This document shows, piece by piece, positions 6,926 through 43,705 of a stretch of 47,224 nucleotides of DNA. This stretch comes from Polyangia bacterium (GTDB lineage Bacteria > Myxococcota_A > Polyangia > Nannocystales > Nannocystaceae), in the NCBI GenBank assembly GCA_030430565.1, contig JAUIKS010000008.1, positions 1 through 47,224 of the forward strand. The letters run 5' to 3'. Made by a program: the position numbers and the translations under genes. Every line of letters begins with the position of its first letter. Position 1 is the stretch's first letter. The notes beneath the pieces were generated by a model. It had not been told where the DNA came from and made no database searches. It saw only the letters and a list, made by a program, of their open reading frames with translations.

Positions 6926-9900
6926 CTAGCCGCGTTTTTTTTTTGACAGGTCCAGGTAGACCGAGGGGTCGCGCTCGTCCGGGTCTAGCCCGTCGCCGGC
7001 CCGCGCCCGCTGGCTCGCCGCGAGCGGCCCCTCGCCATGTTCTTCCTGTCCCTCAAGACCTGGCTGATTCATCAGCCCGACATCGCCGGGGCGACGCTCG
7101 CCCGCGGTCCCCATGCAGCTCTCGGGGCGAATAGCGAAGACCAGGAGCACGATCAGGATGATGAGCAAGACGACGATCGTGATCCGGCGCGCGCGCTCGG
7201 CAGGGTCGTCGCGGACGATCGCCAGGACCTCGGACTGCTGCGCGCTCGCGGCTCGAGCGCGCGCCGAGGTCGAGGCGCGCGGCTCCTCCTCCGCGGCCCC
7301 GCTGACCGCCGACGCGCCGGCTGCCGCCGCGCTGACCGGCGGCTTCTCGGTCACCGCCGGGTGCCTCCCCGAGATCTTCGCCACCGCGGCCTCGCTCGCG
7401 GACGCGACCTCGCCCTGTCGCCGCTTCCACGAATTCGACGAGCTGCCCGCGCGCGGCGGCGGGCCCTGATCGCGCTCGCGCTCCGCGGTCGACGTGAGCA
7501 CAAAGGGCGAGCGCCCGATCCGGGTCTTCTCGGTGGTCGAGGTGGTGCGGTGCGCGGCGGATGACTCGCTCGCGGACCCCGCCTCCGCGGCGGGAGCCTG
7601 GGTCTCGGGCGGCGTCGCCTCCGTCGGCTCCGGAGCCTGGCGCCGCCTCGCCAGGCGCTCACGCGCGGCGCTGCGTCCGGCCGCAGTCACCCCGGCGACG
7701 GCTGCGGCGCCCGCGACGTCCTTGACGATCGCGCCCGCCTGCTTGCCGATCGTCCCCGACACGCTGCGTCGCTTCGGCCCCGACGGGCGCGCCGGCGGGC
7801 TCGCGCCCTTTGAAGGGATCGGCGGCGCGATGGGAGTCGGCTTTACGCGCGGGTCAGCTTGCTGATGATCTTCGCGTGGCTGCCTCAGCGGTCGCGACGC
7901 GATCGTCGGGGGCTTCGGCGGCGCGCGCTTCGGATCCTGCTGCTTCGCGGTGGGCGGCTGGAACTTCGGGATCGCGCGCGAGGTCGCGCGACTCGGGAAG
8001 CGCGTGGAGGACAGGTGTAGCGGCTTCGAGCTGCGGGCTGGGGGCGTCGCCCCGCTCGGGAGCTTGTTCGACTTCGACTCGGGTCGCGTCGGCAGCTTCG
8101 GGAAGGGCCGCGAGGGCGCGCGCGTCGGCGGGGCGAGACGCGGTGTGCCCGGGGTCGCCTTCGGCTCCGGTCGTTTCTTGTCGTGGTCGCTCGGGGCGTC
8201 GGCTGGCGGCACCCAGGGCTCGGGAGGAGGTGAGGGCGCCGTCGGCTCGCGCTGCCGCTTCGCGCGTGGTGCATCCGAGGACGGCGCGTCGGCGGTCCAC
8301 GCCATGGCGGACGCCGGGATCACGATCGGGACCGGCGTGACCCGACGCCCCGACTGACTCGCGCTCGCCGAGGCGCCGGTGTCCTCCGGCTCCGCCTTCG
8401 CCCCTGGCTTCGCCGTCGCCTCGGGCGTGGGCTTCGCCGTGGGGTCGGGCTCCGCCGTCACCTCGGGCTGCTTCTCGAGCTTCTTCTCGAGCTTCTTCTC
8501 GAGCTTCGCCGCGGGCTTCTTCTCGAGCTTCGCCGCGGGCTTCTTCTCGAGCTTCGCCGCGGGCTTCGCCGCCGCCTTCGCGGTTGACTCGGGCTTCGTC
8601 GCGGGCGTCGCCTTCGCGGTTGACTCGGGCTTCGTCGCGGGCGTCGCCGTCGCGGTTGCCTCGGGCTTCGTCGCGGGCGTTGCCGTCGCCGGTGGCGTTA
8701 TCTCGGGCTCCGCCGCCTCGGGCTTCGCCGCCCGGGGCTTCGTCTCCTCTTCAGGCTTTGCTTCCGCCTCGGGCTTCGCCGCCGCCTCGGGCTTCGCCGC
8801 CTCGGGCTTCGTCTCCGCTTCAGGCTTTGCTCCCGCCTCGGGCTTCGCCGCCGCCTCGGGCTTCGTCGCCTCGGGCTTCGTCTCCGCTTCAGGCTTTGCT
8901 CCCGCCTCGGGCTTCGCCTCTTCCTTAGACTCCGCCTCGGACGGGGCCTCGGCCTCCGGCGTCGCCTCGACCTCGGCTTGCGACTCCTCGACGACACCGG
9001 CTCGATCCGAGGAGGCGTCATCGGCTGGAGCTCCGCGCGCGTCGTGGACCTCGGGCGCCGGCTCCGGCGCTGCCGCGAGTTCATCGGCGGGCGCGGGCTC
9101 AGCCCCGGGCGACGGCGCGGCCTCCGGCTGCGGTCGCTCGACGCTCGCGGCCGCGTCCCCCTGCTCCTCCGGCGGGATCAAGTCGACGACCGGGAGCTCG
9201 TCCGTCTCCTGCGCCGCCTCGGGCTGAGATGCTGGCTCGGGAGACAGGTCATCGACCGAGACCTTCTGGAACCTCGAGCTGACCGCTGGCTCGGCCTCCG
9301 GCGCCGGCGCCGGCGCTGGCTGTAGCGCGGGCTCGGGGGACAGGTCATCAACCGGCAGCTGCTGAAACCGCGAGCTGACCGCTGGCTCGGTCTTCGGCGC
9401 GGGCTCGGGCGCTGGCTGCGTCGCTGGCTCGGGGGACAGGTCATCCACCGCCACGCGCTGGAACCGCGAGCTGACCGCTGGCGCCGGCGCCGGGGCGGGC
9501 TGCGGCGCCGGGGCGGGCTGCGGCGCGAGGGCGGCCGCCGCCTTCAGCTCCTCCTCGTCGAAGGGCACCTCCATCCACATCGACACGTTGACGCGGACGC
9601 CGTGCTTGCGGCCGTACTTGACGATGACGGTGAGGATCCACTCCGCGCAGGCGTTCGCCTCGCGCGTCGAGGAGAGCACGCGGCTGCGCGCGAGCTCGCG
9701 ACCGTTGCGCGAGCGAATCGAGAGGTAGTGGCCGTCGCCCTCGGGCTTGACCTTGTAGCTCGAGCGCATCAACGCGGCCTGGATCAGCGAGCGGACGCCG
9801 TTGTCGCGCGAGCGCGTGGAGCCGTAGCCGTGGCTGTACAGCAGCGCCGCGCCGCCCTCGTCGTTGAAGTGGAAGTAGTAGCGCTTCTTGCCGCCCTCCT

Positions 9901-10729
9901 CGACGACGAAGACCTCGAAGCCGGGCTCGCCGGAGCGTGACGATCGATCGAGGTCGTAGCCGGCCTTGGCGGTCTTCCGGCGCGTGCGCTTGCCGAGGTA
10001 GCGACGCTCCTCCGCCGGCGCGCTCGCGATCATCCAGGCGATCGCCGCGTCGCGCTCGGCGCTCGAGTCGAACCACCGGCTGCGCGCCAGCTCGCGCCCG
10101 TTCCGCGCGGTGATGACGAAGTACCAGCGCCCCGAGGACTCGCGCTTGGTGTAGCGGCGCTCGTCGCTGAGGGCGCGCAGCAGCGATCGCAGCAATTCGT
10201 CGCGCGGGTACTTCGCTACGACGCCGCGCGTGAACAGCAGCGGCTGACCGCGCTCGTCGTTGTAGTGCGCGCAGAACAGGCCGTCGCGCGCGCGCTGGAC
10301 CGCCTCGGCCCCGGCGACGCCCGAGCGCGAGCGCTGCTCTAGATCGTAGCGGATCGCCACGTTGAGCAGGACGGTGCGCCCGCGGCTGCGCGCGCGCGTG
10401 ATCGGGTAGCGGACCTTAAAGCTCTCGCCCGAGGCGGCCCACGCTCTGAGCGCGCCCAGCAGCTCCTCCGCCTCCTCCCGCTGCTCGCGGGCGTCGCTCG
10501 TCGCGAGCGTCGCGCCGAGCTCGTCGGTCACGACGAAGCCGAAGCCGCCCTCGACCGCGTCCACGCGCGTGTCGTCGCGCTCGCGCAGCTCGTCGACCGT
10601 CTCCTCGATCTTCTTGAGGCAGACGTCTCGATCCCCGTACTCGGGGCTGACTAACGCGACCGCGCCGCTGTCCAGGATCAGCTGGAAAGAGGTCTCGCCG
10701 CGGGGGTTCTGGAGCAGTCGGAAGTGCAT
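6926..10729 (-). CDS. Giant (1267 aa) protein with N-terminal tandem DUF1508/YegP-like repeats, a huge low-complexity P/A/E/K region and a C-terminal transmembrane tail anchor
   Basis: Six YegP-like modules, e.g. GRWYFVITARNGRELARSRWFDSSAERDAAIAWM, GHYLSIRSRNGRELARSRVLSSTREANACAEWI and KRYYFHFNDEGGAALLYSHGYGSTRSRDNG. Three copies of ...PAPEPA..VSSRFQ..VDDLSPEPA..., then KPEA(A/G/E)n, ATPATKPE and KKPAAKLEKK repeats, then a basic P/S/R/K-rich segment. Single hydrophobic helix ITIVVLLIILIVLLVFAI about 50 residues from the C-terminus. No N-terminal signal peptide. Confidence 0.7.
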   Translation of the reverse strand: MHFRLLQNPRGETSFQLILDSGAVALVSPEYGDRDVCLKKIEETVDELRERDDTRVDAVEGGFGFVVTDELGATLATSDAREQREEAEELLGALRAWAASGESFKVRYPITRARSRGRTVLLNVAIRYDLEQRSRSGVAGAEAVQRARDGLFCAHYNDERGQPLLFTRGVVAKYPRDELLRSLLRALSDERRYTKRESSGRWYFVITARNGRELARSRWFDSSAERDAAIAWMIASAPAEERRYLGKRTRRKTAKAGYDLDRSSRSGEPGFEVFVVEEGGKKRYYFHFNDEGGAALLYSHGYGSTRSRDNGVRSLIQAALMRSSYKVKPEGDGHYLSIRSRNGRELARSRVLSSTREANACAEWILTVIVKYGRKHGVRVNVSMWMEVPFDEEELKAAAALAPQPAPAPQPAPAPAPAVSSRFQRVAVDDLSPEPATQPAPEPAPKTEPAVSSRFQQLPVDDLSPEPALQPAPAPAPEAEPAVSSRFQKVSVDDLSPEPASQPEAAQETDELPVVDLIPPEEQGDAAASVERPQPEAAPSPGAEPAPADELAAAPEPAPEVHDARGAPADDASSDRAGVVEESQAEVEATPEAEAPSEAESKEEAKPEAGAKPEAETKPEATKPEAAAKPEAGAKPEAETKPEAAKPEAAAKPEAEAKPEEETKPRAAKPEAAEPEITPPATATPATKPEATATATPATKPESTAKATPATKPESTAKAAAKPAAKLEKKPAAKLEKKPAAKLEKKLEKKLEKQPEVTAEPDPTAKPTPEATAKPGAKAEPEDTGASASASQSGRRVTPVPIVIPASAMAWTADAPSSDAPRAKRQREPTAPSPPPEPWVPPADAPSDHDKKRPEPKATPGTPRLAPPTRAPSRPFPKLPTRPESKSNKLPSGATPPARSSKPLHLSSTRFPSRATSRAIPKFQPPTAKQQDPKRAPPKPPTIASRPLRQPREDHQQADPRVKPTPIAPPIPSKGASPPARPSGPKRRSVSGTIGKQAGAIVKDVAGAAAVAGVTAAGRSAARERLARRRQAPEPTEATPPETQAPAAEAGSASESSAAHRTTSTTEKTRIGRSPFVLTSTAERERDQGPPPRAGSSSNSWKRRQGEVASASEAAVAKISGRHPAVTEKPPVSAAAAGASAVSGAAEEEPRASTSARARAASAQQSEVLAIVRDDPAERARRITIVVLLIILIVLLVFAIRPESCMGTAGERRPGDVGLMNQPGLEGQEEHGEGPLAASQRARAGDGLDPDERDPSVYLDLSKKKRG
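8468..8930. repeat. Nested in-frame tandem repeats inside the giant gene: 24/30-bp KKPAAKLE units, 45-bp ATPATKPEST units and about 60-bp KPEA-type units
   Basis: gagcttcttctcgagcttcgccgcgggcttcttctc x3. ttcgcggttgactcgggcttcgtcgcgggcgtcgcc x3. Repeated gcctcgggcttcgccgcc / gcttcaggctttgctcccgcc blocks. Confidence 0.85.
9230..9490. repeat. Three tandem copies of a ~93-99 bp unit encoding the PA(P)EPA-VSSRFQ-VDDLSPEPA motif
   Basis: gctggctcggg(a/g)gacaggtcatc(g/a/c)acc... gaaccgcgagctgaccgctggctcgg recurs at about 9231, 9330 and 9424. Confidence 0.85.
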
Positions 10730-11214
10730 GGGGATGACGCTGCGCGCGGGCTCGGGCGCAGCGGGCGGGTCAGTTCAGACAGGTCTCTTGAGGCATATTT
10801 AGATCAGCGCGCGAGCTCGCGGTACGCCCGAGGCCGCGCCCGTCCTGATCGGGGCGCGCCGGGGCCCGCCCGCGCGGGCGCGCCTTGGGAACGCGCGCTG
10901 TGACTACGTAGACCATCGCTCGTGGCGCTGCGGCGTCCGCCGCGTCGCGTACCGCATCGTAGCGTGGATCCGGCGCGGGGCGCTGTTTCTCGCGAGCGCG
11001 AGGAGGCCGACGCCGCGAGCGCTGACGCGCGCGAGCGCTGGCGCGCCCGCTCGCGCGCAATTTCGTCACTGTCCTACGCGACATATCCCTGGGGACAACG
11101 CGATCCGAGCGGCGCCGCGCCGCGCGGCGCCGCGCGAGCTGACCATTTGCACATACAGGAAACGACGCGCGCGCGGACTTGCGCGAGCGCGGCCCGAGGG
11201 TTTACTTCACGGGC

Positions 11215-36445: not shown

Positions 36446-37555
36446 TCAGGCGCGACGTCGACGTCGGGCGAGCAGCGCGAGCGGGAGCGCGAGCAGCCAC
36501 GCCGCGCCGCGCCGATCATGCTGACCGATGAGGCATGTGCAGCCCTGCGCCGCGTCGTCCTCAGCGGCGTCGGGCTCATAGGGCTCGCCGGACTCCTCGA
36601 CGTAGGGCGCGCCCACGCAGCGGTCGAGGAAGTAGTCTTGAAAGCCAGGCGCCGGCTCAGGGCCGTACGCGGCGATCTGCTCGTGCGGGGCGCAGACCGC
36701 CTCGGCGCGCGCGACCTCGCCGGTCTTGAGGCTGACGATCTCGATCGCGCCGCAGTACTCGCCGGCGCTGACCTCGGCGCCGAAGGTGCGCCCCAGCCCC
36801 AGCTCGGTGTGCGAGGAGAGCACCACGCCGACCTCGTCGTCGGCCTGGCCGTCGACGCCCGCGAGCGCGCGCACGTAGGTCGCGCGCCGCAGCGAGTCGT
36901 TGATCTCGACGTCCCACGAGATGCGCGCCACGGGGCTCTGCTGGTCCAGCGAACAGTAGACGGGGCCGCCGCCGCAGCTGTCCATCTCGCCGGTGTCGCA
37001 GCAGACGCGGCTCCCCGACTCGACGTAGCTGACATCGAGCTCGAAGCCCGTGAGCGCGGGCGCGGCCAGGGCCGGCGCGGGCCCGTCGAAGGTCACGAGC
37101 GCGACGTGCTCGTCGACCTGCGAGGCGCCGTAGCTCCCGAAGGCGCCCTCGTTGTCGACGACGATGTGGATGTCGTAGGTGGTCTGGGGCGTGAGCGCCT
37201 GCGCGGGCGTCCACACGAGCATGAAGTTGCTGACGGTGTCGCCCCAGACGTCGTAGCTGCGCACCGGGATCGTCGACAGCGTCCCGGGGACCTCGACGTC
37301 GCCGTCGTAGACCGTGAAGCTGAGCGCGGCGAGGCTCTCGTCGATCGAGACCACGCCGGCGCTGACGTTGAAGCCGATCGCGTCGTCGGTGTGAACCTCG
37401 ATCGGCAGGACCGGGATGTCTTGGAACTCGAGGCCCTCGGACGCGAAGGCCGGCGAGCACGCGCGGGCGGTCGACCACCACGTCGCGCCGAGCAGCGCGA
37501 CCAGGGACCCAGCGAGCGCCGCCCAGCGCCGATATCTCCACCCCGTCGAATTCAT
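36446..37555 (-). CDS. Secreted protein with a C-terminal MYXO-CTERM-like sorting signal
   Basis: MNSTGWRYRRWAALAGSLVALLGATWWSTARAC signal. C-terminus QGCTCLIGQHDRRGAAWLLALPLALLARRRRRA (Cys, hydrophobic helix, Arg cluster at the extreme C-terminus). Confidence 0.6.
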   Translation of the reverse strand: MNSTGWRYRRWAALAGSLVALLGATWWSTARACSPAFASEGLEFQDIPVLPIEVHTDDAIGFNVSAGVVSIDESLAALSFTVYDGDVEVPGTLSTIPVRSYDVWGDTVSNFMLVWTPAQALTPQTTYDIHIVVDNEGAFGSYGASQVDEHVALVTFDGPAPALAAPALTGFELDVSYVESGSRVCCDTGEMDSCGGGPVYCSLDQQSPVARISWDVEINDSLRRATYVRALAGVDGQADDEVGVVLSSHTELGLGRTFGAEVSAGEYCGAIEIVSLKTGEVARAEAVCAPHEQIAAYGPEPAPGFQDYFLDRCVGAPYVEESGEPYEPDAAEDDAAQGCTCLIGQHDRRGAAWLLALPLALLARRRRRA

Positions 37556-37695
37556 CGTCTCGACGGTATCACAGGCAGCCGACGCGACCGCGGCCGCGAG
37601 CCCGGTCCGTCGACGCGTCAGCGCGAAGTCGCGCGCGGTGATGGTTGTTTGCATGCGCAAGCAAACCGCGCGCGCGCGCGACTACAATCACGGGG

Positions 37696-38766
37696 ATGAT
37701 CCCCGTGGCAGATGCCCCCGCGCCCGCGCTCTCGATCCCGCTCCGCGGGGCGCTCCTCGTCCTCGCGCTCGCGGCCTGCGGACCGGAGGACGGCGGGACT
37801 GAGACTGACACCGACACCGACGCAGACACAGACACCGACGGGAGCGCCGAGCCCGATCCCTGCGCGGAGGATCCCGCGCTCGGGGTCGTCCTCGCCTGCG
37901 ATCTCGAGTTCGCGGAGGAGCTGCTGACGAACGGCGAGCAGGTGATGTGGAACCTCGGCTCGTCCGCGAGCCTCGGCGGCGGCGTGTACTCGATGCCGGT
38001 GACCGGGGGCGAGCCGACGCGGATCACCAACGCGCCCGGCAACGACGTGGTCAGCCACGCCGCGCTCGACGGCGACGAGCTGGTGTGGCTCGCGGGCTTC
38101 GGCTCGGCCGAGCTGCGGCGGACGACCGTGAGCACCGGCGTGACCTACAACTTCGGCTTCGTCGGCCTCACGGACACGTACACCTTCGCTATGGACGAGG
38201 AGCACGCGTACCTGCCGAACCGCGCGATGAACCTGATCGAGCGCGTGCCTCGGGGGGGCGGCCCGCGCGAGACCGTCGTCAGCGGCATCAACCTGTTCGG
38301 CGGTGACACCCGCCTCGCGGTCGTCGATGACTCGCTGTTTTGGACCGGGCTCGACGAGGACGGACAGACGACGCTGTACCGCCGCGAGCTCGCCGGCGAC
38401 GCGCTCGAGGTCATCGCGAGCGGCGGCATCGTCCGGGACATCGCCGCCTTCGCCGGGCACGCGGGCTACCTCTACTGGTCGCGGAGCCCGACGATCTCGG
38501 AGGGCGCGCTGATCCTCCGGGTGCCGAGCGCGGGCGGCGAGTTCGAAGTCCTGCACGAATTCAACGGCAGCATCTCACGCGCGCTGGCCTTCGACGCGAG
38601 CCACATGTACTGGATATCGGGGAACGAGCTGACGCGGATGCCGCTCGCCGGCGGCGCGGCCTTGGTCCTCGCCGAGAAAGACGTCTTCGGCCCGAGCGCG
38701 ATCGCGGTCGACGCGACCCACATCTACTGGCGGACCGGCGCGGCGCTGCGGCGGCTGGCGAAATAG
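37696..38766 (+). CDS. Lipoprotein with a (TD)n linker and a YWTD-like beta-propeller
   Basis: ATG at 37696. LVLALAAC lipobox. TETDTDTDADTDTD linker. Repeated blades ending in aromatic-W motifs (DSLFWTGL, GYLYWSRS, SHMYWISG, THIYWRTG). Confidence 0.6.
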   Translation: MIPVADAPAPALSIPLRGALLVLALAACGPEDGGTETDTDTDADTDTDGSAEPDPCAEDPALGVVLACDLEFAEELLTNGEQVMWNLGSSASLGGGVYSMPVTGGEPTRITNAPGNDVVSHAALDGDELVWLAGFGSAELRRTTVSTGVTYNFGFVGLTDTYTFAMDEEHAYLPNRAMNLIERVPRGGGPRETVVSGINLFGGDTRLAVVDDSLFWTGLDEDGQTTLYRRELAGDALEVIASGGIVRDIAAFAGHAGYLYWSRSPTISEGALILRVPSAGGEFEVLHEFNGSISRALAFDASHMYWISGNELTRMPLAGGAALVLAEKDVFGPSAIAVDATHIYWRTGAALRRLAK

Positions 38767-38827: not shown

Positions 38828-39241
38828 ATGGGTGACGAGAAAGCCAAGCGTCGCGCGGCCTCACTCCTGCTGGGCGTCGCCGTGGGCGCCGGCGCGGCCT
38901 CCGTCGCGAGCGCCGAGACGACGACCGCCGGGCCGACCGAGACGGGCGACACCGACACCGACACCGACACCGACGCGCTGACAGACAGCGACGGCCCGAT
39001 CACGCCGTGCCTCGACGTCGCCGTGTGCCTGTGTCAGTGCAGCGATCGCGAGGAGCCGCTGCCGACCGTCGCTTGGTTCGCGCTCCCGGCCCTGATGATC
39101 GCGCGCCGACGTCGAACGCGCGCGAGCGTGCTCGATCGTCTCTCGGCGCGCGGCGCCCTGCCCCGCGACGTGCTCACGCGCCTGCGCGCGCGCGCGGACG
39201 ACGACGCGCCGGACGACGACACCCCCGCGCGCGGCGGCTGA
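38828..39241 (+). CDS. Small secreted protein with a (TD)n linker and an internal MYXO-CTERM-like segment
   Basis: Sec signal LLLGVAVGAGAASVASA. TGDTDTDTDTDALTD. PCLDVAVCLCQCSD...VAWFALPALMIARRRRTRAS. About 40 residues follow the Arg cluster, which is atypical. Ends 10 nt before the EF-Tu-like gene. Confidence 0.35.
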   Translation: MGDEKAKRRAASLLLGVAVGAGAASVASAETTTAGPTETGDTDTDTDTDALTDSDGPITPCLDVAVCLCQCSDREEPLPTVAWFALPALMIARRRRTRASVLDRLSARGALPRDVLTRLRARADDDAPDDDTPARGG

Positions 39242-39250
39242 GGATCGGCG

Positions 39251-40465
39251 ATGGCCTTCCGCCCGTTCACGCGTGAGCCCATCACCTTGCCGGGGCGCGC
39301 GGCGCTGCCCGCCGTCTCGCTCGCGCTCGTCGGAGACACCGGCGCGGGGAAGACGACCCTACTCGTGGCCCTGACCCACGCGCTCGCGCGCCGCGGCTGG
39401 GCGCCGCGCGCCGACTTTGACCAGCTCGACGTGACGCCCTACGAGCACGAGCGTGGGAGCTCGATCACGCTCTCGCACGTGCGCGCGCGCTCGGAGCGGC
39501 GCCGGCTCGTCTGGATCGACTGCCCCGGTCACTCCGCGTTAACGCGCAACGCCTACAACGGGATCGCGCAGGCGGACCAGGGCGTGCTCGTGGTCGCCGC
39601 CGATCAGGGCCTGATGCCGCAGTCGCGCGAGCACGTGCGGCTCGCGGCGCATCTCGGCGTCTCCGACTGGGTCGTGTACATCAGCAAGCTCGACGCCGCA
39701 GGCGTGAACGAGGAGCTGCTCGAGCTCTCGGAGCTCGAGGTCCGGGAGTTCTTTAACAGCCTCGAGCTCGAGGGCGACGGGCTGACGATCCTGCGCGGCG
39801 CGCCTCGGGCCGCGCTCGAGTCCGGGCTGAAGACGCACGCCGACTCGCTGTGGGCGCTGCTCGACGCCGTCGACTCGCTCCCGCTGCCGCGCCGCGATGT
39901 CGACGCGCCGCTGCTGATGCCCGTCGCCGACACCTTCTCGCGCTACCGCCCGCGCGCGGTGATCGTCACCGGAAAGCTGGCGCGCGGCGCGGTCGAGCTG
40001 GGCGAGTCGATCGAGCTGCTGGGCTACGGCGAGCGCTGGCGCGGGGAGGTCACGAGCCTGCACCGCGAGCGCGTGCCCGCGACGCGCGCGACGGCCGGTG
40101 ACCACGCGGGCCTGCTGCTCGAGGGGCGCACGGTCTGGAACACGCGGCGTGGGCACGTCGTGGCGGCGCCTGAGAGCGTGACCCCGCGCGACACGCTCCG
40201 CGCGGAGCTGCGGATGTTGACGACCGCCGAGGGCGGCTACGGCCACGCGGTGTTCCGCGGCTTTCGCCCGCAGCTGCACGTGCACACCGCCGACGTGGCG
40301 ACGCGCCTCGACGCCGCGCGCGACCGCGACTTCATGTTCTCGCCCGGCGAGCCCGCGCGCGTCGTGCTGGAGCTGCAGCACCCCATCGTGGCCCTCGCGG
40401 CGCAGCCGATCGTGCTGCGCGCGAGCCGAGCGACGGTCGCGCTCGGCGCGGTCGTCAACGACTAA
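39251..40465 (+). CDS. Diverged EF-Tu-like translational-GTPase paralog (three EF-Tu domains, non-canonical G1 and G4 motifs)
   Basis: Collinear with EF-Tu over the full length. GDTGAGKTTL vs GHVDHGKTTL. RADFDQLDVTPYEHERGSSITLSHV vs [24 protein letters not shown]. DCPGH conserved. VVYISKLD vs IVFLNKCD. EELLELSELEVREFF vs EELLELVEMEVRELL. LLMPVADTFS vs FLLPIEDVFS. GGYGHAVFRGFRPQLHVHTADV vs [22 protein letters not shown]. GAGGA 7 nt upstream of the ATG. Confidence 0.8.
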   Translation: MAFRPFTREPITLPGRAALPAVSLALVGDTGAGKTTLLVALTHALARRGWAPRADFDQLDVTPYEHERGSSITLSHVRARSERRRLVWIDCPGHSALTRNAYNGIAQADQGVLVVAADQGLMPQSREHVRLAAHLGVSDWVVYISKLDAAGVNEELLELSELEVREFFNSLELEGDGLTILRGAPRAALESGLKTHADSLWALLDAVDSLPLPRRDVDAPLLMPVADTFSRYRPRAVIVTGKLARGAVELGESIELLGYGERWRGEVTSLHRERVPATRATAGDHAGLLLEGRTVWNTRRGHVVAAPESVTPRDTLRAELRMLTTAEGGYGHAVFRGFRPQLHVHTADVATRLDAARDRDFMFSPGEPARVVLELQHPIVALAAQPIVLRASRATVALGAVVND

Positions 40466-40528
40466 ACCGCCTCCTCGCGCCCCTCGGCGCGGGACATCGA
40501 CGGCGCCGCGCCGTACACTCAGCGTGGA

Positions 40529-41749
40529 GTGTCGACCTTCACGCTCGCCTCGCTGGGCGCGTTCGCGCTCGTGGTGCTCAGCGCCGCGCTCTCGCGCGGG
40601 GTCGTCTTCGCGATCTTCGCGGCCATACTGCTGGGGGTCCACACCGCGGTCGCTACCGCGCTGTTCGGACAGGTCCCTGAAAACCTGTCTTTTGTGCCCT
40701 ACGCGCTACAGGCCGCCGTCTATCTGCACTTCGCCTCGCTCACGCGCCCGCGCATGCGCCCTTGGTGGTACCGCGCGCTGATCACCTACCCGGCGCTGTG
40801 GTTCGTGAGCGCGACCTTCCTGGCGTTCCCGTGGGCGATCGCGGCGGCCCTCGGCGCGCGCCCCTATCTCTGGTGGCTGCCCTTCGCGCTCGCGCTGCTG
40901 GGCCTGCTCGAGTCGCTGTGGACGCGCCCTGAGCGAGTGACGCTCCCGCTCGCGGGCGCGGACGCCGGGCGGTCGCTGCGCCGCGTCGAGCACGAGCTGT
41001 CGCGCCAGCGCCAGGCTGAGGCGCCCCGAGCCCCCGACGGCGCGCGACGTCTGCGGATCGTTCAGATCACGGATCCGCACCTCGGCCCGTTCATGTCCGC
41101 GCGCCGCCTGCACGCGATCTGCGAGCGCGCGGTGGCAGCGGATCCAGACCTCGTGCTGCTGACCGGCGACTTCTTCACGATGGAGTCCTCGTCGACGCCG
41201 GGCCTGCTGGCGCGATCGCTCGCGCCGCTGCGCGCGCTCGAGGGCCGCGTGTTCGCGTGCTTCGGCAACCACGATCACGAGGCGCCCAGCTTCGTGCGCG
41301 CCGGCCTGGACGAGGTGGGCGCGCGCCTGCTGGTCGACGAGGCGGCGGTGGTCGAGACGTCCGCGGGGCCGGTGCAGCTGCTCGGCTTTGACTTCGCGTG
41401 GCGCGACCGCGCGGCCCGGATGAAGGAGGTCTGCGCCCGCGCCCCGCGGCTCGCGGGCGCGCTGCGCCTCGCGCTGCTGCACGACCCGGGCGCGTTTCGA
41501 CACCTGCCCGAAGGGCAAGCTGACTTGGTGCTCTCGGGGCACACGCACGGCGGGCACGTCGGCCTCGTCAGCCTCGGGCTGCCGTGGACCTTCATCGGCG
41601 CCGTCTCGAGCGTGCCCGACTTCGGGCTGTGGGCGCGCGGTCGCGACCGGCTCTACGTGCACCGCGGCACAGGCCACTACGGCTACCCGCTCCGCCTCGG
41701 CGTCCCGGCCGAGGAGAGCGTGCTCGAGCTCGAGCTGCCCGCGGCCTGA
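40529..41749 (+). CDS. Membrane-anchored metallophosphoesterase (calcineurin-like phosphoesterase, YaeI/YkuE-like)
   Basis: About 130-aa N-terminal region with 4-5 TM helices. Then IVQITDPHLG, LTGDFF, CFGNHDHE, LSGHTHGGH phosphoesterase motifs. GTG start 64 nt after the EF-Tu-like gene. Confidence 0.75.
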   Translation: MSTFTLASLGAFALVVLSAALSRGVVFAIFAAILLGVHTAVATALFGQVPENLSFVPYALQAAVYLHFASLTRPRMRPWWYRALITYPALWFVSATFLAFPWAIAAALGARPYLWWLPFALALLGLLESLWTRPERVTLPLAGADAGRSLRRVEHELSRQRQAEAPRAPDGARRLRIVQITDPHLGPFMSARRLHAICERAVAADPDLVLLTGDFFTMESSSTPGLLARSLAPLRALEGRVFACFGNHDHEAPSFVRAGLDEVGARLLVDEAAVVETSAGPVQLLGFDFAWRDRAARMKEVCARAPRLAGALRLALLHDPGAFRHLPEGQADLVLSGHTHGGHVGLVSLGLPWTFIGAVSSVPDFGLWARGRDRLYVHRGTGHYGYPLRLGVPAEESVLELELPAA

Positions 41750-41838: not shown

Positions 41839-42951
41839 ATGGCGCGGGACCGGCGGTGGATCTGGGTAGTGGTGTTCGGCGCGGCGTCCACCGCCGGCTG
41901 CTTCATCGACGCCGGCTCGAGCTCGGGCGACGCGACCTCGGCGACGAGCGACGCGGAGGAGAGCGTGGGGGCCTCGACCTCCTCGGGCGCGACCGCGGTC
42001 ACGACCGCGCCCGGCACCTCCGCGACGACGAGCTCCGGCTCGTCGGGGTCGAACCTCACGAGCTCGACGAGCTCGAGCGACACCTGCCAGGGCGTCCCCG
42101 AGTGCCAGCCGGGGGCCACCCAGTCCGGTGAGGCCTGCGGGGGGTGCAGCGTCGATCAGCGCGTATGCGGCGAGGACTGCACGTGGGGCCCGTGGGCCTG
42201 CGTCGCCGACGAGAGCGCCTGCGCGGTGTGGATCCTCCGCGACGGCGCGCGCGAGTGGGACGCGCGGCCGATCGAGCTCAACGGCGCCGCGCTCAACACC
42301 CCGGACGACCCGATCCAGGCGGCCTTCAACCTCGAGCTCGGCAGCACCGCCTTCGTGCTCACCGAGAAGGAGTACCACGGGCTCGACCTCGAGAGCCTCA
42401 CCTGGAACGCGCGAGGCGACCGTGAGGACATGTTTGATCAGGCGACCGAGCAGAACCTCGAGGGCGCGGTCTCGATCAACACGGGGCAGTCCCTGGGCGA
42501 GCCGCCGACGAGCGCCGAGCGGATCGTGCTCTACAGCGACGAGGACTACTGGGTCTTCCTCCTGGAGGTCAACGAGCTGATCGCGGAGTTCGTCGAGGAG
42601 GGGCCGTGCTGCGGCGACACGAACGACTGGCTCGGCCCGCTCGCGCCGGATCCGGCGGACATGCGCGCTATATGGCTGGACATGATCGGCAACCCGGCGT
42701 GGAACCCCATCAACCTGGTCAATTGCCCGCCGCTGATGGACGGGACGCCGCTGACGAGCTACGCCGGCTACGCGGTCATCGACGACACCGTTCGCCTGCG
42801 GGAGTACTCGGGCTGCGGGCAGTTCGTCGGCAGCTTCGGGTACGCGGAGTACGCTCCGTTCACGTACCCGAACCGCCCGCCCGCCCCGGAGGAGCTGGGC
42901 GCGGCGCTGTTCCACGACGGCGATCTGTACGTGTTCAAGTCCGATATCTGA
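41839..42951 (+). CDS. Hypothetical secreted lipoprotein with an N-terminal Cys-rich module
   Basis: ATG at 41839. WIWVVVFGAASTAGC lipobox. S/T-rich linker. CQGVPECQPGATQSGEACGGCSVDQRVCGEDCTWGPWAC. Confidence 0.55.
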   Translation: MARDRRWIWVVVFGAASTAGCFIDAGSSSGDATSATSDAEESVGASTSSGATAVTTAPGTSATTSSGSSGSNLTSSTSSSDTCQGVPECQPGATQSGEACGGCSVDQRVCGEDCTWGPWACVADESACAVWILRDGAREWDARPIELNGAALNTPDDPIQAAFNLELGSTAFVLTEKEYHGLDLESLTWNARGDREDMFDQATEQNLEGAVSINTGQSLGEPPTSAERIVLYSDEDYWVFLLEVNELIAEFVEEGPCCGDTNDWLGPLAPDPADMRAIWLDMIGNPAWNPINLVNCPPLMDGTPLTSYAGYAVIDDTVRLREYSGCGQFVGSFGYAEYAPFTYPNRPPAPEELGAALFHDGDLYVFKSDI

Positions 42952-42987
42952 GCGCCAGGTGGGCTGAGCTCAGCCCGCGCCCGACCG

Positions 42988-43003
42988 TGGCACACCGCTT
43001 GCT
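42988..43003 (+). promoter_or_regulatory. Candidate sigma-54 (-24/-12) promoter upstream of hemG
   Basis: TGGCACaccgcTTGC matches TGGCAC-N5-TTGC exactly, with the GG and GC dinucleotides 12 nt apart. Lies about 90 nt upstream of the hemG ATG. A 16-bp perfect palindrome gggctgagctcagccc at 42961..42976 sits 12 nt upstream. Confidence 0.4.
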
Positions 43004-43093
43004 TTTACTGCGGGCGTGACCGACACGGAGCGCCCGCCCGAGGTCACCTCGTGGGCGCGAGAACTCGCGACCCGGGTACGTCGAGGAGCCACC

Positions 43094-43705
43094 ATGAAGC
43101 CGATACTCATCCTGTACGCGACCCGCGAGGGTCACACCAAGAAGGTCTGTGAGCACATCCGCGAGAGCCTGCGCGCCCGCGCCCACGCCGTCGAGCTGCG
43201 AGACGTCCGCGAGCTACCCCGCGAGTTCGCGCTCGATCGCTACGCGGCCGTGATCCTCGGCGCGTCGGTTCACCTCGGCCGCCACGAGGGCGCGATGGTC
43301 AAGTTCGTCACCCGCGCGCGCGCGCAGCTCGAGCCGCTCCCGACCGCGCTGCTCACCGTATGCCTGACGGAGGCGACGATCGAGGACGAGCGCAAGCCCG
43401 CGGAGGTCCGGCGGCAGGCGAGCGAGGACCTCGCGGGGATCATGGAGCGCTTCTACGAGACCACCGGGTGGCACCCCGACCGCGCCGCGCCGGTCGCGGG
43501 CGCGCTGATGTACCGCGAGTACGGCCTCGTCGTCCGTTGGATGATGCGACGGATCGCGCGCTCGACCAGCGGCGACACCGACACCTCGCGCAACCACGTC
43601 TACACCAACTGGGACGCGCTCGACCACTTCGTCGAGGACTTCATCCAGCGCTTCGTCCAGACCCTCGAGCCCGCGAGCGCGGCGAGCGTGAACACGGCGC
43701 CGTGA
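43094..43705 (+). CDS. hemG: Flavodoxin-like protoporphyrinogen IX dehydrogenase (menaquinone-dependent), HemG family
   Basis: MKPILILYATREGHTKKV flavodoxin start with GAGGAG at a 5-nt spacer. LMYREYGLVVRWMMRRIA and GDTDTSRNHVYTNWDALDHFVEDF match the HemG-specific insertion (G-ETDT-S-K-x-VYTDW). Confidence 0.75.
   Translation: MKPILILYATREGHTKKVCEHIRESLRARAHAVELRDVRELPREFALDRYAAVILGASVHLGRHEGAMVKFVTRARAQLEPLPTALLTVCLTEATIEDERKPAEVRRQASEDLAGIMERFYETTGWHPDRAAPVAGALMYREYGLVVRWMMRRIARSTSGDTDTSRNHVYTNWDALDHFVEDFIQRFVQTLEPASAASVNTAP

Follow-up and report, generated by a model that had tools for sequence, protein, structure and literature searches.

The stretch of 47,224 nucleotides of contig JAUIKS010000008.1 from a Polyangia bacterium that was analysed here (the window) encodes a protein of 404 amino acids with similarity to EF-Tu (EFTuL), situated between a small open reading frame (ORF) and a gene for a metallophosphoesterase (MPE) with multiple transmembrane segments. 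We conclude with high confidence that EFTuL is a stand-alone, selected and lineage-restricted EF-Tu paralogue that stems from a radiation of such paralogues in myxobacteria. The explanation favoured overall goes further and sees in this paralogue a ribosome-uncoupled GTP switch that would still bind the 3' end of tRNA, a reading to which we give slightly less than an even chance. Its mechanistic part, namely a GTP switch uncoupled from the sarcin-ricin loop, binding of the acceptor end and an altered aminoacyl preference, is proposed with modest confidence. GTP hydrolysis would no longer be triggered by the sarcin-ricin loop, the protein being either a slow switch or dependent on another activator. 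EFTuL would bind or carry, in a GTP-dependent way, the acceptor end of an acylated tRNA or a similar RNA 3' end, with an altered aminoacyl preference and outside general decoding, while its conserved helix D may still contact L7/L12 or EF-Ts. The three genes, as given in the ORF listing, are the following:

38828-39241, plus strand: small ORF, 137 amino acids
39251-40465, plus strand: EFTuL, 404 amino acids, three EF-Tu domains
40529-41749, plus strand: MPE, 406 amino acids, GTG start

The first-pass annotation had placed these ORFs correctly, but the gaps between them measure 9 nt (small ORF to EFTuL) and 63 nt (EFTuL to MPE) and not 10 and 64 nt as given there.

EFTuL matches the Pfam domains GTP_EFTU (1e-31), GTP_EFTU_D2 and GTP_EFTU_D3, and its residues 19-401 align with solved EF-Tu structures at an E-value of about 1e-79 and 35-39% identity (35-37% to canonical EF-Tu), in agreement with the earlier statement that it follows EF-Tu through all three domains. 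With the NCBIfam EF-Tu models it reaches 272-290 bits and stays below their cut-offs of 449-522 (272.6 versus 522.4 bits for TIGR00485, 290 versus 452 for PRK12736), which confirms that the gene is not the housekeeping tuf. The scores for EF-1alpha (134 bits), SelB (112), CysN (69) and eIF2gamma (57) all lie far under the respective cut-offs; membership in these families was rejected, and the parent family is clearly EF-Tu. For CysN/NodQ (68.5 bits versus a cut-off of 336), a CysD-like neighbour was also missing at every locus. An AlphaFold2 model of EFTuL (predicted local distance difference test, pLDDT, 85.5; predicted template modelling score, pTM, 0.86) has its best Foldseek match in T. 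thermophilus EF-Tu-GppNHp (1exm; template modelling score, TM, 0.90; root-mean-square deviation, rmsd, 2.1 A), and the protein as modelled would keep the closed three-domain form of EF-Tu. The net charge ranges from -2 to +4 in comparison to -15 to -18 in canonical EF-Tu, EFTuL being about 15 units more positive.

Close relatives of EFTuL are extremely rare. A protein identical to that of the window (P0001) and the orthologues P0002 (locus L001, 81% identity) and P0003 (locus L004, 56-57% identity), the latter with a counterpart, P0013 (L007), in the Myxococcales metagenome-assembled genome (MAG) HK-STAS-MYXO-17, make up a clade that counts about four sequences in some 15 billion proteins. When a profile built from the three orthologues was compared with 1.84 billion representatives at 50% identity, its own cluster scored 816 bits and the next one 300 bits. 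Word-indexed searches returned as close relatives P0001, P0002 and P0003, plus P0011 at 34% identity, and no further clade member when a five-sequence profile was used. Scanning of the GTDB species representatives yielded one locus, equivalent to L004, while no clade member was found in the viral contigs or in the JGI metagenomes, the latter containing unrelated G domains.

More distant paralogues surround this clade. P0017 (41% identity) and P0011 (33-35%) have derived motifs in common with the clade that are absent from EF-Tu, namely RGW after helix A, RRRxxW before G3, xWVV before G4, [ST][KR]xD, HTA and VLR...ALG. In a neighbour-joining (NJ) tree of 81 full-length EF-Tu-like representatives, P0001, P0002 and P0003 group together in 196 of 200 bootstraps, and the same clade plus P0017 and P0011 in 165 of 200, although long-branch attraction may exaggerate how firmly these long branches group. 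Branching next are P0079 and P0112, likewise from myxobacteria, the latter (WP_422887916.1) being annotated as "GTP-binding protein" in the cultured Nannocystis pusilla. Given that P0003 (L004:2370-3605) and P0079 (L022:528-1784) share the assembly GCA_020431325.1, and that P0001 and P0011 originate from one sequencing run (ERR3428547, Logan), single genomes carry several such paralogues, which are 30-40% identical to each other and to EF-Tu. The sampled sequences thus suggest that diverged EF-Tu-like genes have radiated in Nannocystis-like Myxococcota and, within this sampling, nowhere else. Atkinson 2015 recognised the actinobacterial actEF-Tu as the sole distinct EF-Tu-like subfamily of bacteria (PMC4342817), and a description of the myxobacterial paralogues was not found in the searchable literature, so that the family was rightly called uncharacterized.

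The assembly GCA_020431325.1, a Myxococcales MAG, carries P0003, P0079 and a fragment of the P0017 type, which makes two different diverged EF-Tu-like paralogues at the least and probably three; fragments MCA9719221.1 and MCB9752970.1 belong to the P0017 cluster. P0011 (L005:527-1720) is far more degenerate, with GHPGSGKR in place of the P-loop, TKID at G4, no DxxG and a lost aminoacyl pocket. A fragment of an AAA ATPase that matches the PADLOC model IetA (E=1.5e-20) lies 14 nt upstream of it.

Several features indicate that the EFTuL gene is maintained. Its GC content by codon position (0.76/0.50/0.95) is typical of genuine genes in DNA with 72% GC, and in three lineages the ORF is intact over its full length and its N-terminus (MAFRP...) conserved. 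In comparison with the L001 orthologue, the ratio of nonsynonymous to synonymous substitution rates (dN/dS, Nei-Gojobori) is 0.32, next to 0.30 for the MPE, 0.33 for the flavodoxin gene and 0.38 for the upstream gene, values which are a relative measure only, because a GC content of about 0.95 at third codon positions compresses dS. Judged from these sequences, the gene appears to be functional and not decaying, and to evolve as fast as ordinary neighbouring genes.

The changes that set EFTuL apart from EF-Tu concern, among others, the nucleotide-binding site, the motifs of which are located as follows:

39332-39355, plus strand: P-loop GDTGAGKT (GHVDHGKT in EF-Tu), Walker A intact, Asp21 replaced by Gly and His22 by Ala (E. 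coli numbering)
39518-39532, plus strand: G3/switch II DCPGH, kept in EFTuL
39683-39694, plus strand: G4 SKLD (NKxD in EF-Tu), Asn lost, Lys and Asp kept
39797-39808, plus strand: G5 region GAPR (GSAL in EF-Tu), SAL replaced by APR, a change not mentioned previously

GDTGAGKT, DCPGH with its His, and SKLD had all been read correctly. EFTuL retains the Walker A pattern GxxxxGKT, DxxG, the Lys and Asp of G4 and helix C MPQSREH, while Ser replaces the Mg-binding Thr61. Fixed in the clade are D21G, H22A, N135S, S173A, A174P and L175R/Q. The first-pass annotation had concluded from the altered G4 motif that the nucleotide preference is shifted towards xanthosine triphosphate (XTP) or ATP. This is weakly founded, since Lys and Asp of G4 are kept, whereas XTP specificity arises from a change of the Asp in NKxD (D to N) and not of the Asn, the Lys forming a wall of the base pocket (PMC7952092). 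As both residues are retained, guanine specificity is the default expectation, and the motifs suggest that EFTuL most likely still binds guanine nucleotide; of 140 EF-Tu-like representatives, 20 begin their G4 motif with Ser or Thr. Given that G5 is also changed (SAL to APR), a weakened or relaxed base pocket is conceivable, and the Pro in G5 may lower the nucleotide affinity.

The loss of Asp21 is central to the proposed uncoupling from the ribosome. According to Maracci and Rodnina, this residue is invariant in translational GTPases with the exception of eIF2gamma, which is activated by a protein and not by the ribosome, and the D21A exchange cuts the ribosome-stimulated GTPase activity approximately 1000-fold (PMC5084732). 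In ribosome-bound EF-Tu the Asp21 side chain sits in a pocket of the sarcin-ricin loop (PMC9825190), and its position corresponds to Gly13 of Ras, where a side chain hinders the arginine finger (PMC5084732). Substitution of His84 by Ala, Gln or Arg also abolishes ribosomal stimulation of EF-Tu (PMC5084732). The equivalent of this His is present in EFTuL and P0002 and replaced by Arg in P0003, P0013 and P0014, so that it is not required across the clade. Val20 has become Thr, Leu or Ala, and Ile60 is replaced in two of three clade members (Ser, Glu) and kept in P0002; both positions belong to the "hydrophobic gate" (PMC5084732, where the second is numbered Ile61). Furthermore, conservation is lowest in switch I, where 7 of 23 positions do not vary in the clade, and the loop equivalent to E. 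coli 219-226 has changed from SISGRGTV to SRYRPRAV and gained one residue. From the loss of Asp21 and these additional changes we infer that the ribosome no longer activates this clade as it does EF-Tu.

Asp21 is also absent in 48 of 140 divergent EF-Tu-like representatives, 25 of which carry Gly instead (typically GHxGHGKT), with P0021 from Kibdelosporangium and P0156 from Rhizobium mongolense as examples. Loss of this residue recurs in unrelated bacteria, apparently without having been surveyed so far.

The second part of the favoured explanation, binding of the tRNA end, refers to the following regions:

39707-39754, plus strand: helix D (NEELLELSELEVREFF), the surface best conserved relative to EF-Tu
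39941-40105, plus strand: part of domain 2 with the aminoacyl/A76 pocket, fixed clade-specific changes
39941-39943, plus strand: I220R, fixed in the clade
40061-40063, plus strand: E259H, fixed in the clade
40103-40105, plus strand: N273H, fixed in the clade

The residues compared are the tRNA contacts of the EF-Tu literature; the E. coli letters at these positions agree. In statistics that comprise three sequences, residue lists from that literature and nine uncorrected tests, the clade shows no variation at 11 of 13 sites of the acceptor end, the 5'-phosphate and the aminoacyl pocket (p=0.021 against a background of 54%). Of the 13 sites, seven (H66, N90, D216, F218, T228, R262 and R288) have the E. 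coli residue (p=0.026 against a background of 26%), and helix D is identical at nine of 16 residues (p=0.008 against the same 26%). In EF-Tu, helix D is the contact site for L7/L12 and EF-Ts. At other sites of this set K89 is replaced by R and E215 by A or D, while I220R, E259H and N273H, all fixed, would render the pocket more basic. The acceptor-end and pocket residues thus appear to be the most constrained part of the clade, and it is for this reason, together with the three basic-making changes, that an acceptor-end binder is proposed.

Several points weigh against this interpretation, in addition to the narrow basis of these statistics and the above-mentioned limits of the tree and of dN/dS. 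In domain 3 conservation of the T-stem contacts is lacking (one of seven residues identical), and neither an aminoacyl-tRNA synthetase paralogue nor a tRNA gene was found beside any family member. Since neither P0017 nor P0011, the sister paralogues, conserves the pocket, binding of the tRNA end may be clade-specific or an inherited property that has not yet decayed.

A duplicate drifting under relaxed constraint, be it a pseudo-GTPase or scaffold without a tRNA-related role or a gene on its way to loss, would fit the very patchy distribution, the rapid divergence, the sister P0011 that has lost GKT, DxxG and the pocket, and the frequent absence of Asp21 in divergent EF-Tu-like proteins. However, the ORFs are intact and of full length with a conserved N-terminus in three lineages, dN/dS does not exceed that of the neighbouring genes, 60 clade-specific substitutions are fixed at sites invariant in canonical EF-Tu, the pocket and helix D are significantly constrained, and the AlphaFold2 model shows a confident compact fold. 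We therefore regard drift as unlikely.

The retained residues also raise the question of a condition-specific or antibiotic-resistant alternative elongation factor that still delivers aminoacyl-tRNA to the ribosome, comparable to Streptomyces tuf3/actEF-Tu or to the resistance copies of antibiotic producers. While the full EF-Tu architecture, DCPGH with its His in EFTuL, the preserved acceptor-end residues and helix D, and the actinomycete precedent (PMC4342817) are in line with such a role, the lost Asp21 and the H84R exchange in P0003 concern the two residues whose mutation abolishes ribosomal stimulation or lowers it by three orders of magnitude (PMC5084732). Divergence also affects the 219-226 loop, switch I and the T-stem contacts, the identity within the clade is no more than 57%, and the actEF-Tu sequences (DMPGH, NKAD, VSGL) lie on a separate branch. 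In addition, no polyketide synthase, nonribosomal peptide synthetase or other biosynthetic cluster was detected in the 47-kb window, for which reason self-resistance to an EF-Tu antibiotic was rejected. An alternative elongation factor is thus quite improbable.

A decoy or guard for toxins or phage proteins that target EF-Tu would bind these effectors and not be inactivated at the usual sites. Known sites of attack differ here, since the Tre-Tu ADP-ribosyltransferase acts on D21 (PMC9825190), which EFTuL lacks, and switch I has an altered RGITI segment. In addition, the family is multi-copy and fast-evolving, and the IetA-like AAA ATPase fragment is located directly upstream of P0011. Defence or toxin-immunity genes are, however, not consistently adjacent, a mobile-element context is missing, and the changes are equally explained by the loss of ribosomal function, making a decoy very improbable.

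We favour a paralogue standing on its own, whereas the first-pass annotation had assumed that EFTuL, the MPE and the small protein form a signalling, quality-control or conflict module built around a switch with a preference shifted to ATP or XTP. The three genes lie on the same strand with gaps of a few to some dozen nucleotides, no terminator-like site was found between them in a scan that is uninformative at 72% GC, G4 and G5 are both altered, and the gene order recurs in L001. The downstream gene indeed encodes a metallophosphoesterase with N-terminal hydrophobic segments, as had been noted. It matches Pfam Metallophos PF00149 (1.2e-10) and carries all five catalytic motifs (DPH, GDFF, GNHD, LHDP and GHTHGG at residues 182, 213, 246, 317 and 337). 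In these motifs, in its Metallophos domain and in its N-terminal membrane anchor it resembles YaeI/COG1408, while it differs from YaeI, its best NCBIfam match, by a score below the equivalog cut-off (89.8 versus 188 bits) and by belonging to a Polyangia-wide orthologue group. The latter counts 3,419 homologues at E<=1e-30 across Polyangia, with 57-65% identity in Sorangium, Nannocystaceae, Polyangiaceae, Sandaracinaceae and Byssovorax. Given that the MPE is present in thousands of genomes and the EFTuL clade in about four sequences, the former cannot be the dedicated partner of the latter. An EF-Tu-like gene was absent from all three MPE neighbourhoods sampled (L017-L020; a Nannocystaceae MAG, Sorangium So ce315 and JGI contigs).

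The upstream gene had been described as coding for a small secreted protein. A signal-like segment is present, followed by an acidic (TD)n stretch and a Cys cluster, but the protein does not seem to be simply secreted, since a second hydrophobic segment with RRRR and a charged tail of 40 amino acids give it the appearance of a membrane-anchored protein. It has no Pfam, NCBIfam or PADLOC match and is conserved in L001 alone (75% identity, dN/dS 0.70). The AGGA sequence of EFTuL, resembling a Shine-Dalgarno motif, includes the final two bases of the stop codon of the small ORF, so that co-transcription of the two genes is likely in the genome of the window. A scan for promoters and terminators returned no sites, which is uninformative in DNA with 72% GC.

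The order small ORF-EFTuL-MPE was found again in L001 only, where EFTuL is 81% identical. Because L001 is collinear with the window over 36.5-43.7 kb, the shared order reflects close relatedness only and is uninformative. Neither an MPE nor a small ORF accompanies the 56%-identical orthologue (L004/L007); P0003 and P0013 have instead a pyridoxal phosphate (PLP) enzyme of Cys/Met metabolism upstream and a gene with an NYN domain on the opposite strand downstream. An MPE neighbour is also absent in L005, L008, L021, L022 and L024, and the five other paralogues, none of which has an MPE or small-ORF neighbour, are flanked by different genes:

P0017: membrane protein and OmpA-like lipoprotein
P0011: AAA ATPase upstream
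P0079: DUF2891
P0112 (Nannocystis pusilla): sigma-54/FHA activator
P0123: fatty-acid hydroxylase and P450

The comparison of neighbourhoods from both sides thus revealed unrelated neighbours, and a module of EFTuL with the MPE or the small ORF was rejected, the co-location not extending beyond the collinear L001. Missing co-location in relatives is the very outcome that the first-pass annotation had named as speaking against its module. Likewise, a defence or conflict system was discarded, as PADLOC gave no significant match for the three proteins (EFTuL has a weak generic G-domain hit to LeoA, E ~1e-4) and nothing was found in viral contigs. Taking into account also the retained NKxD Asp and Lys, with XTP switching depending on D to N, the proposed module is hardly credible. 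The MPE is an ordinary Polyangia gene that is adjacent by chance, and the small ORF is a neighbour and not a conserved partner.

In the L004 and L007 loci, the PLP enzyme (L004:969-2354, L007:6486-7985), which is absent from the window, is located 15 nt upstream of the orthologue on the same strand and is possibly co-transcribed with it; in the stop-to-stop translation of the ORF, about 120 residues precede the Pfam domain of the enzyme. The MPE orthologue of L001 (L001:3241-5070) was called with 609 amino acids, including an N-terminal extension of 200 amino acids without counterpart in the window, where 40529 is the earliest in-frame start that follows a stop, and the longer call is likely a miscalled start site. 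L001 also contains an insertion (L001:6229-9121, corresponding to about 42951-43016 of the window) with a hybrid histidine kinase and a GerE-type response regulator, between the gene for a lipoprotein of 370 amino acids and the flavodoxin gene. The latter (43016-43705, plus strand) encodes a Flavodoxin_5 protein near HemG, the menaquinone-dependent protoporphyrinogen IX dehydrogenase, which scores 118 bits versus a cut-off of 142.

The window as a whole is ordinary chromosome and encodes a methionyl-tRNA synthetase (MetRS), BtpA, PSD-domain proteins, proteins with leucine-rich repeats (LRR) and FG-GAP repeats, an acyl-AMP ligase, a sigma-54 activator and a histidine kinase. ARAGORN and Rfam detected no tRNA genes or Rfam elements in the window or in six loci of family members. 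A Balon/eRF1-like partner was considered and dismissed, as the flanking proteins of 370-373 amino acids have no Pfam match and look like secreted lipoproteins. Acidic (TD)n repeats just past signal-like segments are common to the exported proteins encoded at 37645-38766 (plus strand), 38828-39241 (plus strand) and 36446-37660 (minus strand). In two of these, a stretch with Cys precedes a hydrophobic helix and a run of Arg, an arrangement that resembles the MYXO-CTERM sorting tail, for which no NCBIfam match was obtained. Within an ORF of 1282 amino acids (6926-10774, minus strand), which also matches DUF1508, dense in-frame tandem repeats with periods of 12-96 nt extend over 8460-8920 and 9231-9508, and the AT skew at 8001-9000 is -0.59; the repeats probably constitute a repetitive charged linker of a large protein.

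EF-Tu is among the most conserved and least duplicated proteins of bacteria. Intact, selected paralogues without the residue that couples translational GTPases to the sarcin-ricin loop would therefore represent a natural experiment, in which the EF-Tu scaffold has been freed from decoding and may have become a new tRNA-handling factor, a regulator or a decoy. The family of Asp21-less EF-Tu paralogues, undescribed so far, is a worthwhile lead, although the original claim of a module falls and the "switch plus membrane phosphoesterase", a product of chance in the gene order, ought to be dropped. With one family member in the cultured Nannocystis pusilla, the question is experimentally approachable. 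As a more far-reaching possibility, which on the sequence evidence we consider rather unlikely, Nannocystis-like myxobacteria would possess an undescribed multi-member family of EF-Tu-derived GTPases cut off from the ribosomal GTPase-activating centre, within which the clade of the window would have kept and re-specified its acceptor pocket in order to escort a particular, possibly negatively charged or non-proteinogenic acyl-tRNA to a non-ribosomal user, or to sequester it. If true, EFTuL would be a bacterial EF-Tu paralogue with a function outside decoding.

In comparison with known systems, EFTuL resembles bacterial EF-Tu (TIGR00485/PRK12736) in its three-domain architecture, its length (about 395 amino acids in EF-Tu), the identity of 35-39%, the modelled closed GTP form, and the retention of Walker A, DCPGH, Lys and Asp of G4, helix D and most acceptor-end contacts. 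It differs by the absence of Asp21, His22, Asn135 and SAL and by the diverged switch I, 219-226 loop and T-stem contacts, and its rate of evolution is that of an accessory gene, the orthologues being 81% and 57% identical; it is confined to a handful of genomes. With tuf3/actEF-Tu it has in common that it is a lineage-restricted extra copy of EF-Tu which has escaped gene conversion and diverged. In contrast to EFTuL, which has lost Asp21 and Asn135, the actEF-Tu of Streptomyces keeps GHVDHGKT, NKAD and His84 (in DMPGH) and is regarded as a working elongation factor; membership of EFTuL in this group was rejected, as the identity is about 38% and the Streptomyces sequences form a separate branch of the NJ tree.

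Like EFTuL, eIF2gamma/aIF2gamma has an EF-Tu fold without the Asp of the P-loop; eIF2gamma binds tRNA and is activated by a protein factor instead of the ribosome (PMC5084732). The likeness is to be understood as a functional analogy for uncoupling from the sarcin-ricin loop, since EFTuL (57 bits versus a cut-off of 514) derives from bacterial EF-Tu and not from the eIF2gamma/SelB branch. Candidates for a beta or alpha subunit or a GTPase-activating protein of EFTuL were not identified. SelB (111.7 bits versus a cut-off of 242) is distinguished by a C-terminal winged-helix extension that the 404 amino acids of EFTuL do not include, and no associated tRNA, element resembling a selenocysteine insertion sequence (SECIS) or tRNA-modifying enzyme was found for the latter. 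By analogy, however, SelB and the engineered EF-Sep are EF-Tu-type carriers with a re-specified aminoacyl pocket, as EFTuL may be, the specificity of which is purely inferred. EF-Sep is said to carry six mutated positions, with which the changes of EFTuL at E215 and N273, plus E259 and I220, overlap, and in both cases the pocket reportedly becomes more basic.

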